Below are positions 652-8,279 of a DNA stretch of 26,955 bases, in pieces (the stretch's first letter is position 1; every line of letters begins with the position of its first letter). Source of the DNA: Patescibacteria group bacterium. Its GTDB lineage: Bacteria > Patescibacteriota > Patescibacteriia > UBA2591 > UBA4787. The translations under genes and the position numbers were made by a program. The notes under the pieces are model-generated. The model ran no database searches and was not told the DNA's origin. It saw only the letters and a list, made by a program, of their open reading frames with translations. The stretch is from positions 1-26,955 of the forward strand of contig JBBTUI010000065.1 in NCBI GenBank assembly GCA_038063835.1, in the 5' to 3' direction.

Positions 652-689
652 ATTAAATTAAAAGGGAGCTTGTTTTTTACAAGCTCCCT
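652..689 (-). terminator. Intrinsic terminator of the metallophosphoesterase gene
   Basis: Perfect 11-bp stem agggagcttgt (663-673) / acaagctccct (679-689) with a 5-nt loop. A U-rich tract follows on the minus strand, and the stem begins 7 nt after the TAA at 697. Confidence 0.85.
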
Positions 690-696
690 ATTGAGG

Positions 697-2718
697 TTAC
701 ATAGACTCGAGTTCCTTCTCGTCGAAATACTCAGGGGTGACCGAAATCACGTCCCCGACGCCATCCAGGCAAACCCGAACCACCCAGCATCCGATCTGAG
801 GCGTAAGGGCCTTCCTGATGAGGTAGTCGGTCTCGCCCTGCATACCCGGCACCATGAAACCGGCGATGCCGTTGTTCAGCATGAACAAGGCAACATGGAG
901 ATGGCCTATTGCCAAACTGTGAATGTCGTCACCTTCTTCGACTAAGACTAAGATCAGCTTCCTGATTGTCTCTTGCAACCGATAGCTGCGACCCATCGGG
1001 ATTCCGCCATCGGGATGAAGAAGCCGAACTTTGATCTTATTGGGTTGCCGACCGCAGTTGGAATCGCCCCTGTCATGGCCCAAATAGATCAGCACCTTCC
1101 GTCCGACCAAAGCATTGACGCCGTCGCAGATGGCCTCCACCACATCATGTCCGGCTCCAGCATACGCCCGGCACATGTCATGATTTCCGGAGATCACCTC
1201 AGTATTCGGCATCTCGGGATGTTTCTTGTAGATCGGAACCAGAATTTTCTTCATTCTTTCCTTCTGGTTATCCGCGCCGCAGGCAACCAGATGCTCAGAA
1301 TGGCCGGCATAGATATCTTTTCCGTCGGTCACGTCACCGGCATGGAGAATTTTCTGTACCTTGCGCAAAAGAGCCAACTTGTAGATCTTGGGAATGAGTT
1401 TCGGCCGATCATTGTCCGATCCAATCTGAGTATCGCCATAAAGCAAATACTCCACGTAATTGGCCTGGATCTCGGTCCAGGGGATGTTGATCGGCTTGAA
1501 TTCGACCCGGCGATCACGGACAATCTTCCAGGCTCTCTTGGCTTCGTCGCGGATGAGCTCAAATCCCAGTTTCTGGAGACCGCTGATGGTCTCCTCCACA
1601 TAGGTCTTGTCTTTTCCTATAAGCCGCGACAAGGCTCCGGTCGAAGCAGAATTGCTCAACAGACAGTCGAGCACCTTCTTCTGATCTTCGCTCGGCTCGC
1701 CCTCGGCACTCGGCTGACGCTTTGGCGCCTCTTCCAAGTAGTCCTTCTCAATGGTATAACCGCTCAGGTTGTAGCAGGTGACGATGGGCTTTACGAACTT
1801 GCCCTTTTCGTCGAAGATCAAGTCCATCACCACGAAACCCACCATCGGCGAACCGATCTTCTTCTCCCCGTCCATCATATCGCTGGGATTATAGAGTCCG
1901 GGAACGGAGATCATGTGGTACCCGCCCTCTTTCTGCGGAGGCTGATGCATGCCGACGAAGTGTCCGCCGACGATCATAATCTGGAAATTCTGACGACCGG
2001 TATGACGCCATTCGGAAACTCCGATCTGCGAAGCGGCTAGGTTCTCTACGGGATACGAAAGAGTGTAGGCTCCTGGTCCACTTTTCTTGGAATGGGCCGC
2101 AATCACCTTGACACCGTTGATATCGAACTCGGAAAAGAGATCTTTGCGCGCAACCAGATCATCGCGACCAGTAGCGATCTCTTCGGCAACATTCTTGCCA
2201 GAACTGATGTCCGACGGCCCGTTGATGACGTAGATCTTGAACTTCTTGGATACCGGAAAATTATCGCGAGCGTACTGGATCTGCTCCTCGGTATCGGTAA
2301 GAAAATAGTGCTGCTTGGTTTTGGAAGTCGGTTTGCCGGCGATCATATTGCCCAAAAAAATGGCGAAGTCGACGCCCAATCCTTCGGCATGTTTGATCAC
2401 GGCGTGGACCAAAGAATTCTGTTGAAGCTTCGAGCCCAAAAAGGCATCGGACATCAGAAGAATCCTTTTCCTGCTTCCGAAAACCGGAGACAGCGGCTTC
2501 ACATCCTTCTCCGACGGAGAAGACTTGACGAGCTGGACCGATTCGGTCGACATATCGGCTACAACATTGATGCCGTTTGCCCTCATCTGGTCAACACCCT
2601 TGCGAATAATCTCCTTGCTCACGCCGAGCTTCGAAGACAAGTATTGCAACTTGAACTCGATGCCAGGCTGCAGAATCTCGGCCAGGTGTGTGACGACCTT
2701 GGCGATTTTGTCCTTCAT
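697..2718 (-). CDS. Tandem [winged-HTH + calcineurin-like metallophosphoesterase]x2 protein
   Basis: 673 aa. The C-terminal domain has GDTQIGS / HAGDVTDG / ISGNHD / LLHPDGG / IGHLH. The N-terminal homologous domain has SDAFLGS / GNMIAG / INGPSD / AHS / GGHFV. An HTH-like segment precedes each domain (LSSKLGVSKEIIRKGVDQMRANG; LSRLIGKDKTYVEETISGLQKLG). Strong RBS, own promoter and own terminator. Confidence 0.8.
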   Translation of the reverse strand: MKDKIAKVVTHLAEILQPGIEFKLQYLSSKLGVSKEIIRKGVDQMRANGINVVADMSTESVQLVKSSPSEKDVKPLSPVFGSRKRILLMSDAFLGSKLQQNSLVHAVIKHAEGLGVDFAIFLGNMIAGKPTSKTKQHYFLTDTEEQIQYARDNFPVSKKFKIYVINGPSDISSGKNVAEEIATGRDDLVARKDLFSEFDINGVKVIAAHSKKSGPGAYTLSYPVENLAASQIGVSEWRHTGRQNFQIMIVGGHFVGMHQPPQKEGGYHMISVPGLYNPSDMMDGEKKIGSPMVGFVVMDLIFDEKGKFVKPIVTCYNLSGYTIEKDYLEEAPKRQPSAEGEPSEDQKKVLDCLLSNSASTGALSRLIGKDKTYVEETISGLQKLGFELIRDEAKRAWKIVRDRRVEFKPINIPWTEIQANYVEYLLYGDTQIGSDNDRPKLIPKIYKLALLRKVQKILHAGDVTDGKDIYAGHSEHLVACGADNQKERMKKILVPIYKKHPEMPNTEVISGNHDMCRAYAGAGHDVVEAICDGVNALVGRKVLIYLGHDRGDSNCGRQPNKIKVRLLHPDGGIPMGRSYRLQETIRKLILVLVEEGDDIHSLAIGHLHVALFMLNNGIAGFMVPGMQGETDYLIRKALTPQIGCWVVRVCLDGVGDVISVTPEYFDEKELESM

Positions 2719-2725
2719 GACGAAT

Positions 2726-2734
2726 ACCTCCTTT
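2726..2734 (-). promoter_or_regulatory. Shine-Dalgarno site (AAAGGAGGT)
   Basis: The minus strand reads ctgAAAGGAGGTattcgtcATG. Confidence 0.85.
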
Positions 2735-2800
2735 CAGATATTTTTTTGATTTTTTAAAAGAACAATAAAAGGTATTAAACCTTTTGATATCTGCGCTCGC

Positions 2801-2847
2801 TCGGAAAAGCAAATTCATTTGCTTTTCTCTCGCTCGCTTGATAATAA
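2801..2847 (-). repeat. Hairpin element, copy 1 (paralog at 20940-20987)
   Basis: tcg-gaaaagcaaa-ttca-tttgcttttc-tctcgctcgcttgataataa. Positions 2824-2847 are identical to 20964-20987 (24 nt). Confidence 0.8.
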
Positions 2848-2861
2848 GAACTCTTAATATA

Positions 2862-2889
2862 ATTAAAGCAAATTGTCAAAAGTTGTCAA
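2862..2889 (-). promoter_or_regulatory. Sigma70-type promoter for the metallophosphoesterase gene
   Basis: Minus strand: TTGACA (2884-2889), 16-nt spacer ending TGC, then TTTAAT (2862-2867). The same TGC-TTTAAT extended -10 occurs in the promoter at 11691-11719. Confidence 0.6.
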
Positions 2890-2890
2890 C

Positions 2891-3026
2891 CCCCGTAGTA
2901 GAACTTCGAGTCGATGCTTAAACTTCATAAGTTTAAGATATTTAAACGAAACGCTTATTACCCTTTTACTTAATAAAAAACGCCGCAATAGAGCATCGAA
3001 AAAAATTCTCGAAGTTCACTACGGGG
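2891..3026. mobile_element. MITE-like element C (136 bp, about 19-20 bp TIRs)
   Basis: Left end ccccgtagtagaacttcgag and right end ctcgaagttcactacgggg differ by one indel. Inner inverted repeat tcgatgct/agcatcga. Internal perfect hairpin cttaaactt-cat-aagtttaag at 2917-2937. Confidence 0.6.
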
Positions 3027-3086
3027 CTTCGCCCCAACCATCATATTTTAAAAATTTAATTAATCTTTTTCAAGTGAGGGGCTCAA

Positions 3087-6644: not shown

Positions 6645-8279
6645 TTATTTGTTAAATAATTTTAATAAATTGCGGGTTACGGTAATTGCGGTGAACATAC
6701 TGAGAATAACGCCCAACCCCAGGGTTAGCCCGAAACCGCGGATTAAACCGGTGCCAAAATAATAAAGGATAAAACAAGTGATCAGAGTAGTAACATTGCC
6801 GTCGCGGATGGCGGTCCAGGCATGGCGGAAGCCATCGTTAATTGCTGTTCCGCCAAATTTGCCTAAACGCTTTTCGTCTTTAACGCGCTCAAAAATAAGC
6901 ACATTCGCGTCAACGGCCATGCCAAGCGAGATGATAAAACCCGCGATCGCGGATAAGGTTAAAGTAACTGGCAATAATTTATAAACAGCCATATTAATTA
7001 GAGCATAAATCAATAAAGCAATTGAGGCGATTAATCCATAAAAACCATAAAAAGTAATCATAAAAATCATCACCGCTAAAAGACCGATTATGCCGGCCAC
7101 AAAACTTTTATTAACTGAAAGACGGCCTAAACTGGGACCGATATTTTGTTGACTGACCAAATTAATAGCCACGGGCAAAGCGCCGGCGCTTAATCGTTGC
7201 GCCAATTCCTTCACCTCCTTGATATTAAAATTGCCGGTAATAACTGCTTTGCCGCCGGTAATAGTTTCGCGTACGGTTGGGACGCTAATTGGCACCCCGT
7301 CCAAAAAAATAGCCACTGGCTTGCCAATATTGCGCTGGGTGATCTCGCCAAACAACTTAGTTCCCTCTTCATTAAATTCCAAAGAGACTTCTGATTCATT
7401 GGTGTTCCCGCCAAAACTCACTTGGGCGCTTTTTAATTGCTTGCCGGTTAAGCCCGTATACTGCCACTGTGATTGCGGATTACTCAAATCAATTTCGAGC
7501 GATTGAGTTTCAATAAGAATATGGCTGGCCTTAATTTCTTCCTTTCCGTCGGCTGTTTTTCTTTCGTCAAATTTTTTAATAATATGATAGCCGAAAAAAC
7601 TTTCTACTAATTGTTTGGTGACTTCTCCCTTTTTTAAAGCAAAAGCCGCTTTTTCAAATTCCGGAATCATAGCGCCTTTGCCGAACCAACCAAGATCGCC
7701 GCCTTGATTTCCACTACCCTCATCCTCTGAATATTCCTTAGCCAAAGCGGAAAAATCAGCGCCGGACTTTAGGACTTTTTTAAGAATTTCACTAGCTTTC
7801 TGTTCGGCTTGTTGATTGTAATTTTCTCTGTCTTTTTTTTCTTGATCGCTTAATGGCTTGGACGAGGCCTGTTCTCTAAATTCCAAAATTGGCGTTTCGC
7901 CGATCATTTCAATGGCCTCTTTCACATTCCTAATACCAGGCAATTCAACCACCAACCTCCATTCATTTTCAGCTTTCACGGTATGGATAACCGGCTCGCT
8001 TACACCGAAAAAATTAACGCGGCGCTCAATTACATCGCGCGCGCCCTCAACTGCCGCCTCTCGCTGGTCTCCGGGAATATTAGTTGTATCTGTCTGATAA
8101 ATCAACTGTGTTCCGCCTTGCAAATCAAGACCTAAATGAATTTTTTGCTTAGTAAACCACTGACTAAGAGGTACCCAACTAGGCACTCTCGGAATGTTAA
8201 CCAATAAAGAAAAAATCGTTATCAAAATAATAACGATGAGTAATGTCCAATTTTTATTGCTTTGCGACATATAAAACAA
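6645..8279 (-). CDS. secD: Protein translocase subunit SecD with an inserted parvulin-type PPIase domain
   Basis: LGLDLQGGTQL, RRVNFFGVSEP, LSAGALP, IGPSLG, GMAVDANVLIFER, AIRDGNVTT. The insert reads FSALAKEYSED...GGDLGWF...PEFEKAAF...GYHIIK...ASHILI. Confidence 0.95.
   Translation of the reverse strand: MFYMSQSNKNWTLLIVIILITIFSLLVNIPRVPSWVPLSQWFTKQKIHLGLDLQGGTQLIYQTDTTNIPGDQREAAVEGARDVIERRVNFFGVSEPVIHTVKAENEWRLVVELPGIRNVKEAIEMIGETPILEFREQASSKPLSDQEKKDRENYNQQAEQKASEILKKVLKSGADFSALAKEYSEDEGSGNQGGDLGWFGKGAMIPEFEKAAFALKKGEVTKQLVESFFGYHIIKKFDERKTADGKEEIKASHILIETQSLEIDLSNPQSQWQYTGLTGKQLKSAQVSFGGNTNESEVSLEFNEEGTKLFGEITQRNIGKPVAIFLDGVPISVPTVRETITGGKAVITGNFNIKEVKELAQRLSAGALPVAINLVSQQNIGPSLGRLSVNKSFVAGIIGLLAVMIFMITFYGFYGLIASIALLIYALINMAVYKLLPVTLTLSAIAGFIISLGMAVDANVLIFERVKDEKRLGKFGGTAINDGFRHAWTAIRDGNVTTLITCFILYYFGTGLIRGFGLTLGLGVILSMFTAITVTRNLLKLFNK

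Follow-up and report, generated by a model that had tools for sequence, protein, structure and literature searches.

The nucleases Mre11 and SbcD work at the ends of DNA and are dimers; class III cyclic nucleotide monophosphate (cNMP) phosphodiesterases and ApaH are members of the calcineurin-like superfamily. For DP1, the small subunit of DNA polymerase D (PolD), the literature on PolD and on polymerase B-subunits describes a protein of archaea and eukaryotes (PMC7281927, PMC7544198); the B-subunits of eukaryotic DNA polymerases are inactivated DP1 homologues, and inactivated groups exist among archaeal DP1 proteins as well (PMC7544198). In phages, Bxb1 gp47 is necessary for replication of the phage DNA and displays limited, weak exonuclease activity (PMC11795197), while A10ZJ24 gp48 damages host DNA (PMC12287305). 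Here we analyse P0001, a protein of 673 amino acids (aa) encoded by a single open reading frame (ORF) on the minus strand, at positions 697-2718 of a 26,955-nucleotide stretch from a Patescibacteria group bacterium (assembly GCA_038063835.1, contig JBBTUI010000065.1, positions 1 to 26,955), which as a whole we refer to as the window.

An earlier reading of this DNA, made without database searches (hereafter the original prediction), had proposed an active enzyme and a pseudo-enzyme joined in a single chain with two DNA-binding modules, possibly a nuclease, a nucleotide-signal hydrolase or a defence factor. On the strength of sequence comparison and structural modelling, we hold with moderate confidence that P0001 would be a Mn/Fe-dependent nucleic-acid exo- or endonuclease working as a built-in asymmetric dimer, in which a dead unit serves as scaffold or platform and winged helix-turn-helix (wHTH) domains serve as anchors.

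Results

Internal duplication

The internal duplication of P0001 is established. Direct comparison of the two halves by BLASTP was marginal (E-value 0.06, colinear across 236 columns), and their homology follows by transitivity through shared single-unit proteins. A hidden Markov model (HMM) of the unit, trained solely on 60 single-unit (short) proteins, finds two matches in P0001 that cover the same part of the model: residues 2-327 with E 5.7e-45, and residues 329-672 with E 1.5e-79. Taken singly, both halves also align end to end with the same short proteins, as for P0045 (1e-27 with the N-half and 1e-37 with the C-half). An exhaustive HMMER search recovered 987 cluster representatives (50% identity) at E <= 1e-3, and these matches fall into two size classes, one of 650-880 aa matching over the full length and one of 300-440 aa matching a single half. 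The resulting layout, in which MPE denotes a metallophosphoesterase domain and pLDDT the predicted local distance difference test, is as follows.

697..2718, minus strand: whole ORF, wHTH and dead MPE followed by wHTH and live DP1-like MPE; 673 aa plus stop codon (697-699)
2524..2718, minus strand: N-unit winged helix, residues 1-65; H-S-H-H-S-S topology (DSSP)
2473..2523, minus strand: flexible linker, residues 66-82; pLDDT <50 at residues 66-80
1729..2472, minus strand: N-unit pseudo-metallophosphoesterase, residues 83-330; unit HMM E 5.7e-45
1690..1728, minus strand: inter-unit connector, residues 331-343; HMM envelope boundaries at 327/329, no regular secondary structure by DSSP
1519..1689, minus strand: C-unit winged helix, residues 344-400; DSSP and family profile
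700..1470, minus strand: C-unit DP1-like metallophosphoesterase, residues 417-673; unit HMM E 1.5e-79

The two homologous units of the original prediction are thus borne out by the double HMM match and by the single-unit relatives that both halves share, and the division it had placed at about residue 335 falls within the unit boundary found here, at about 330-343. The motifs that it had paired all lie at homologous HMM columns: AYTLSY (217-222) and GRSY (576-579) represent the conserved Y..SY..Q motif of the family, and VGFVV and IGCWVV have in common an invariant glycine at HMM column 343.

Dead and live metal sites

The nine ligand and catalytic columns of the unit HMM were read in 46 double-unit proteins, each representing a cluster at 50% identity. 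In their C-units these columns are nearly invariant (D142 100%, H144 96%, D175 98%, and H221, H266 and H308 100%). In their N-units the motif-I histidine H144 persists in 11%, the motif-II D175 in 22% (mainly with asparagine instead), the motif-III H221 in 7% (often arginine or lysine) and the first histidine of motif V (column 306) in 4%; a full ligand set was found in none of the 46 N-units. P0001 itself has the N-unit motifs D91-A-F93, G123-N124, G167-P-S-D170, H209 and G251-G-H-F254, giving the signature DFNPSDHGF (D91, F93, N124, P168, S169, D170, H209, G252, F254) where DHDNHDHHH is expected. Its C-unit motifs are D429-T-Q431, G461-D462, G511-N-H-D514, H568 and G605-H-L-H608, with the signature DQDNHDHHH (D429, Q431, D462, N512, H513, D514, H568, H606, H608). 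Judged by the five calcineurin-like motifs (DxH/GD/GNH[DE]/H/GHxH), the C-unit is of this type, with eight of nine positions canonical, and the N-unit is not. The Pfam Metallophos model (PF00149 clan) gives P0001 19.3 bits, under the gathering score of 21.5 that relatives pass.

These columns show that the C-unit retains a complete two-metal site, save for a recurrent His-to-Gln exchange in motif I, and so agree with the original prediction that the second domain keeps GD, GNHD, H and GHxH behind a first motif of DTQ. The first domain had been described as lacking most metal ligands, and this too stands: each metal site of the N-unit retains at most two of its four ligands, and an intact alternative site in this domain was not found. 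The degeneracy is real, but it is of old standing and characterises all of the double-unit family, and is not specific to this protein.

Loss of the ligands has not been accompanied by decay. The non-catalytic family motifs, namely R..D, Y..SY..Q, a glutamine at column 198 and a proline at column 207, are kept as well or better in the N-units, where P0001 shows R185-x-D187, Y..SY, Q146 and P155. Between the two species of the genus, the ratio of nonsynonymous to synonymous substitution rates (dN/dS) is 0.145 for each MPE domain, and the N-unit MPE is more conserved than the C-unit MPE (87% vs 76% aa identity). The N-unit is a functional non-catalytic module under purifying selection.

The D-x-Q of the C-unit raises the question of whether both units might be non-catalytic in this genus, the exchange having inactivated the C-unit to leave a DNA- or protein-binding scaffold comparable to the B-subunits or Vps29. 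Q431 replaces a metal-ligand histidine found in 96% of C-units, and dead MPE scaffolds are well known; Vps29 is among the fold matches of P0001, and the B-subunits are inactivated DP1 proteins (PMC7544198). Against such a loss of activity, P0001 and its same-genus ortholog, which has D-x-Q in common with it, retain all eight of the remaining ligand and catalytic positions, and the C-unit MPE is under the constraint given above. Of 105 single-unit proteins with an otherwise intact site, 10 also read D-x-Q, as does one viral locus. Moreover, motif I of Bxb1 gp47 reads 'PDTQ', and since gp47 has reported, if weak, exonuclease activity, D-x-Q is compatible with a working protein. We consider a wholly non-catalytic P0001 highly improbable.

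Among the phage members of the family, three (L020:9932-10813, L021:9932-10813 and L022:5754-6599) carry cysteine at the first motif-I aspartate, with the signature CHDNHDHHH. Cysteine in place of the motif-I aspartate also occurs in the debranching enzyme Dbr1.

Fold and winged-helix heads

AlphaFold2, supplied with a 46-sequence family alignment, returned a two-lobed model of P0001 (pLDDT 87.9, predicted template modelling score (pTM) 0.84) comprising a wHTH at 1-65, a disordered linker at 66-80, an MPE at 83-330, a second wHTH at 344-400 and a second MPE at 417-673. The alpha/beta sandwich of the MPE fold is present in both units, so that the homology of the halves extends to their predicted structures, as had been expected. 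A Foldseek search against the PDB put PolD DP1 chains in all of the first ten places, ahead of Mre11/SbcD, LpxH, Vps29 and GpdQ. With VIA-align, the C-unit (417-671) superposed on residues 348-619 of DP1 (5ihe_A/6hmf_A) with Z 18.4 and a root-mean-square deviation of 2.7 A over 222 residues at 21% identity, and Mre11 reached Z ~13.6; the N-unit (85-324) matched MPE folds independently, with Z ~13.5 for LpxH.

Profile comparisons point in the same direction. The C-unit MPE profile matched DP1 in the PDB at 2.9e-11 and Mre11 at 1e-3, and shares with DP1 an extended motif II, 'GDvvDG.g.Y.GQ', and a segment following motif V, 'GH.HV..Y.G...QTE'. The NCBIfam DP1 model NF003118 matches family members (best 1.2e-13, for P0044) with scores of 20-51 bits against an equivalog cut-off of 445, which indicates similarity at the domain level only. 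The phage model phrog_7339, 'DNA repair exonuclease', also matches the C-unit (E 1.6e-9). Taken together, profiles and predicted structure show the live domain to be specifically closest to the 3'-5' proofreading exonuclease DP1.

In the model, DSSP assigned H2-15, E21-23, H24-31, H35-47, E52-55 and E60-63 to the N-head, and H344-355, H360-367, H371-383, E388-391 and E396-399 to the C-head. Pfam HTH_11 matches the N-head weakly (residues 22-55, E 0.004), and homologous heads in relatives exceed the Pfam cut-offs, for TrmB in P0027 and for HTH_11/HTH_24 in P0055. The profile of the C-unit head matches solved wHTH structures, including AdcR/MarR (E 1.7e-6), PH1932 (4.7e-6), Lrp, BirA and Z-alpha. 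What the original prediction had termed HTH-like segments can therefore be specified as two winged helices, by their DSSP topology, the Pfam matches of relatives and the C-head profile, and both may bind DNA.

Such heads invite a different explanation, in which P0001 is a DNA-bound regulator or a small-molecule phosphodiesterase, its wHTH domains binding an operator while the MPE cleaves a nucleotide second messenger or a related small phosphoester such as a cNMP, Ap4A or a cyclic oligonucleotide; the protein would then couple a signal to transcription or, in phages, remove a host immune signal. The heads do resemble regulators of the MarR/Lrp/BirA type and vary among the phage relatives, and class III cNMP phosphodiesterases and ApaH lie within the same superfamily. 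Nevertheless, the catalytic domain is nearest to nucleases (DP1 at Z 18.4, then Mre11/SbcD), with enzymes of the Rv0805/CpdA type not near. The enzyme part has no PADLOC match, no signalling genes lie nearby, and no palindromic operator was identified. We regard this explanation as unlikely, and a nuclease remains our preferred reading of the C-unit.

Duplication history

A tree of 197 units, including the N- and C-units of the 46 double-unit representatives, separates the two halves. Forty of the 46 N-units form one clade together with nine units from other proteins of 650-780 aa (support 0.99), and 40 of the 46 C-units form another (support 0.93); the N-unit of P0001 lies in the former and its C-unit in the latter. 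The split that bears on whether the two clades are sisters has a support of 0.67 only. Because most N-units form a single clade, the main double-unit family derives, as far as the tree of sequences can tell, from one old duplication. Six double-unit proteins (P0051, P0069, P0072, P0086, P0098 and P0140) fall outside both clades and may represent a second, independent dead/live tandem. The N-units of these six are degenerate too, some only partly so, as in P0140 (NHDDHDHQH).

Distribution among phages and Patescibacteria

The single unit is predominantly viral. Its look-alikes in the ESM Atlas are 90-100% viral (Uroviricota), and single units whose sites are intact are encoded on 17 IMG/VR contigs, with unit-HMM E-values from 1e-63 to 1e-111; in clusters of double-unit size the ESM Atlas labels are a mixture of viral and Minisyncoccota. 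A tblastn search of 50,697 deposited phage genomes found the family in Halorubrum tailed virus BLv36 alone, whose ORF43 is a true member (unit HMM E 4e-85). No recurrent partner was found near 14 viral loci, where the neighbours include endolysins, methyltransferases, HNH proteins, O-like initiators and tape-measure proteins. The homologous pair of the original prediction stands, with the correction that the unit itself is mainly a protein of tailed phages.

One phage homolog (L035:9746-11797) is interrupted at HMM column 275, directly before the S-Y motif, by an insertion of ~330 aa that looks like an intein; the ESM Atlas also holds clusters of the family that bear Hint/LAGLIDADG domains, which point to inteins. 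Inteins favour such sites in important DNA-metabolism enzymes.

In cells the picture is one of residence in the chromosome. All double-unit genes with a readable context are chromosomal with housekeeping flanks, and database labels on the relatives read Patescibacteria, Parcubacteria or 'Candidatus Tagabacteria'. The gene is present in 10 of 55 genomes of the order and, in the rest of the phylum, in 3 of a sample of 400. The order cca, double-unit gene, RluA-type pseudouridine synthase gene recurs in seven other genomes of the order that were scanned and in the metagenomic contig of P0003, mostly followed by a nucleotide kinase gene such as that of guanylate kinase (gmk); these genes are co-directional, with mostly short gaps. 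In the genus of P0001 the downstream neighbour is a family 2 glycosyltransferase (GT2). The divergence of P0001 co-varies with that of cca (r 0.86), P0001 being the faster (~30% vs 45-50% identity between families). Outside the order the arrangement was absent in the three cases of G155, P0023 and P0027, which have unrelated neighbours. Since the arrangement disappears beyond the order, we do not read it as a functional link but as inherited gene order. The distribution fits a long vertical residence with many losses.

The GC content at synonymous third positions (GC3) of the P0001 gene is 0.67, against 0.37-0.41 in seven neighbouring genes. In the same-genus ortholog it is 0.69, and orthologs of other genera exceed their flanks by just 0.01-0.14. 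Because four-fold sites are unsaturated between the P0001 gene and its sister-species ortholog, the shared excess may be an inheritance from the ancestor of the genus. Recent horizontal insertion was rejected as the cause, the locus being conserved and its divergence tracking that of cca. Two antisense ORFs on the plus strand (973-2040, 355 aa; 2092-2757, 221 aa) were likewise dismissed as a signal, being expected from codon composition: in synonymous-codon shuffles of the gene the longest antisense frame averaged 367 aa (P 0.44).

A predominantly viral unit with a patchy cellular distribution (10/55 and 3/400 genomes) could be taken for a phage nuclease domesticated for anti-phage defence or superinfection exclusion, in which the dead unit is auto-inhibitory or a sensor and frees the live nuclease on infection. 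The deviant synonymous GC content of the gene and a GIY-YIG fragment adjoining it in the sister species could be accommodated in the same way. PADLOC-DB 2.0, however, gave no hits for P0001, and its relatives match only through the generic wHTH of the CasR and Csa3 models; no defence, integrase or prophage genes lie nearby. A chromosomal position conserved across families and a divergence that tracks the neighbouring gene also speak for long vertical residence. We judge a role in defence very unlikely. Among the double-unit genes with a readable context, a comparison of neighbourhoods of the kind that the original prediction had proposed showed housekeeping flanks, no conserved partner and no defence context. 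Its option of a defence factor finds no support, given these flanks, the lack of PADLOC hits and the conserved gene order.

Genomic context

The source genome (G000) is 644 kb in size and 97% complete. Besides P0001, the window encodes bacterial housekeeping functions: SecDF, MurA, a ClpB-like protein, YceG, YidC, RnpA, YmdB, RNase Y, ClpP, MurC, the CCA-adding enzyme and glycosyltransferases. The P0001 gene has a strong Shine-Dalgarno sequence, AAAGGAGGT, ~8 nt before its ATG. Its protein has no signal peptide and no transmembrane segment, for which a soluble cytoplasmic enzyme is the best explanation. Two further features flank the gene.

2719..3086, minus strand: spacer of 368 nt between cca and the P0001 gene; contains the Shine-Dalgarno sequence AAAGGAGGT, an 11-bp hairpin and an imperfect inverted repeat
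663..689, minus strand: hairpin terminator-like site, 11-bp stem with 6 GC pairs; 8 nt past the P0001 stop codon

The position of the gene directly downstream of cca (PolyA_pol+HD) in the order, and upstream of rluA in seven other genomes, suggests a further possibility. P0001 might heal or trim RNA or tRNA 3' ends together with the CCA-adding enzyme, in the manner of the calcineurin-type phosphoesterase module of Clostridium thermocellum Pnkp, or act as a 3'-5' exoribonuclease. Healing of RNA ends is a known activity of calcineurin-type phosphoesterases (PMC2190708), and the wHTH profile matches include the Z-alpha domain of ADAR1, an RNA-editing enzyme. The synteny is lineage-specific, though, with G155, P0023 and P0027 beside unrelated genes, and a divergence co-varying with that of cca is what inherited gene order would produce. 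In the window the gene is furnished with a 368-nt spacer upstream, a Shine-Dalgarno sequence and a terminator of its own, and the phage relatives lack any tRNA context. A function at RNA or tRNA 3' ends therefore seems to us rather improbable, and we return below to a nuclease built as an asymmetric dimer.

The spacer holds two further elements. A perfect 11-bp hairpin (GAAAAGCAAAT / ATTTGCTTTTC) lies at 2804-2827, within the 5' leader of the P0001 gene, and a ~23-nt imperfect inverted repeat (2888-2910 / 3008-3029) encloses 97 nt. The matching spacer of the sister species carries a 49-aa GIY-YIG fragment (L002:7647-7796). The inverted repeat may be the remnant of a small mobile element.

Elsewhere in the window, SecD (6645-8279) has a parvulin-type peptidyl-prolyl isomerase (Rotamase) domain between SecD_1st and the P1 head, at residues ~150-239. 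This insertion is kept in the sister species (L002:2194-3819).

Discussion

In the mechanism that we propose, P0001 would consist of two copies of one ancestral unit, a winged helix joined to a binuclear metallophosphoesterase of the DP1/Mre11 type, fused covalently into an asymmetric dimer. The C-unit would cleave phosphodiester bonds in single-stranded nucleic acids or at nucleic-acid ends, presumably as a Mn2+/Fe2+-dependent 3'-5' exonuclease or an endonuclease of single-stranded DNA. The dead N-unit may stand in for the second protomer of an ancestral homodimer and, with its non-catalytic family motifs retained, could act as a scaffold or substrate platform, while the two winged helices would anchor the enzyme to DNA or to a partner protein. 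Since the unit is mainly a tailed-phage protein and Patescibacteria hold a resident double version, the protein probably serves the cell in the processing of DNA ends, in repair or in nucleotide salvage, and not in defence. The pairing of an active and a pseudo-enzyme in a single chain, as originally predicted, is supported by the family-wide ligand pattern, the fold of both units and purifying selection; among the functions then listed, the specific relationship to DP1 and Mre11 in profiles and modelled fold favours the nuclease.

Several observations weigh against this proposal. Similarity of fold is no proof of substrate. The replacement of a metal-ligand histidine by glutamine might weaken or abolish catalysis in this genus. 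Domains of the wHTH type are also able to bind protein or RNA, and the predicted geometry of the intramolecular dimer has pTM as its single basis. There is furthermore no conserved partner or operon to indicate a pathway, and the rarity of the gene in the phylum (3/400) implies that its role is dispensable.

It is tempting to carry the relationship to DP1 further. The wHTH-fused DP1-like phosphoesterases of phages and Patescibacteria might be the closest non-archaeal kin of the PolD proofreader, serving as stand-alone or polymerase-associated exonucleases that edit 3' ends in lineages largely without a DnaQ-type proofreader, although we think this quite unlikely. If true, the DP1 proofreading module would have circulated in viruses and bacteria, and its conversion to a dead copy would have occurred independently here and in the B-subunits.

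DnaQ/RNase_T-type domains (PF00929) score above the cut-off in only 6 of the 55 genomes of the order and not in the source genome. They occur regardless of the presence of the double-unit gene, and the P0001 family was set aside as a DnaQ substitute.

We regard the uncharacterised family as DP1/Mre11-type metallophosphoesterases in a new architecture, which amounts neither to a new kind of system nor, as yet, to a new mechanism. Its significance lies in the existence of a sizeable family (987 representatives), in uncultured tailed phages and Patescibacteria, that combines a DP1-type catalytic domain with a different N-terminal head, and in a conserved dead/live tandem that marks its cellular branch. 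The family bears on the origin of the PolD proofreading module and offers a clean natural case in which a homodimer has been replaced by a fused pair of enzyme and pseudo-enzyme. It also draws attention to a predicted nuclease, so far unstudied, in organisms whose sets of DNA-repair genes are minimal.

Comparison with known systems

No match to the architecture of a characterised family was found, in keeping with the original prediction, and our reading of the literature turned up neither a DP1-like protein in tandem or fused to a wHTH nor a characterised member of the family. The nearest described protein is DP1 (COG1311/PRK04036; PDB 5ihe, 6hmf, 8ppt), which P0001 resembles in the superposition of its phosphodiesterase (PDE) domain and in DP1-type sequence features. 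Unlike P0001, DP1 has an oligonucleotide/oligosaccharide-binding (OB) fold before the PDE domain as well as an N-terminal domain; P0001 has a winged helix instead, and DSSP shows no five-stranded barrel. Whereas DP1 is archaeal, the P0001 family is bacterial (Patescibacteria) and phage-borne and is duplicated with one dead copy, and P0001 itself has D-x-Q in motif I. DP2 (PF03833) has no match in the 97%-complete source genome, while three archaeal control genomes match. The absence of an OB fold and of DP2, together with the bacterial host, rules out that P0001 is DP1 itself.

Eukaryotic B-subunits and inactivated archaeal DP1 proteins offer a close parallel to the dead half, since there too a DP1-type PDE domain without metal ligands is kept as a conserved structural module. 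In contrast to B-subunits, the dead copy of P0001 is fused in cis to a live one, and no polymerase subunit with a matching C-terminal domain accompanies it. The loss of ligands in the P0001 family is independent of that in the B-subunits.

With Mre11 and SbcD, P0001 has the binuclear MPE nuclease fold in common (Z ~12-13.6), but its relationship to them in sequence is weaker than to DP1. It also lacks their capping domain, ending at residue 673 with the last strands of the MPE, and an intramolecular dead/live pair takes the place of their dimer. No Rad50/SbcC adjoins P0001, whose neighbours are cca and the GT2 glycosyltransferase, and the sole strong AAA_23 protein of the genome is encoded on another contig. 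Without a capping domain and an adjacent Rad50/SbcC, P0001 is not Mre11/SbcD.

Among phage proteins, Bxb1 gp47 and A10ZJ24 gp48 are likewise DP1/Mre11-like MPEs with DNA-directed roles, and gp47 also has D-T-Q, but both are of ~255 aa, without a wHTH and not duplicated. Bxb1 gp47 was considered as a member of the family and rejected, with E 0.02 in the unit HMM comparison and an hhalign probability of 29% across 55 columns. The single-unit phage proteins, with their HTH-wHTH-MPE architecture and intact ligands, do belong to the same family, but they consist of one unit, are viral and lie in variable neighbourhoods. P0001, by comparison, matches the unit HMM twice, with its N-unit in the degenerate clade and its C-unit in the intact clade, which places it among the tandem dead/live proteins of wHTH and DP1-like MPE units.

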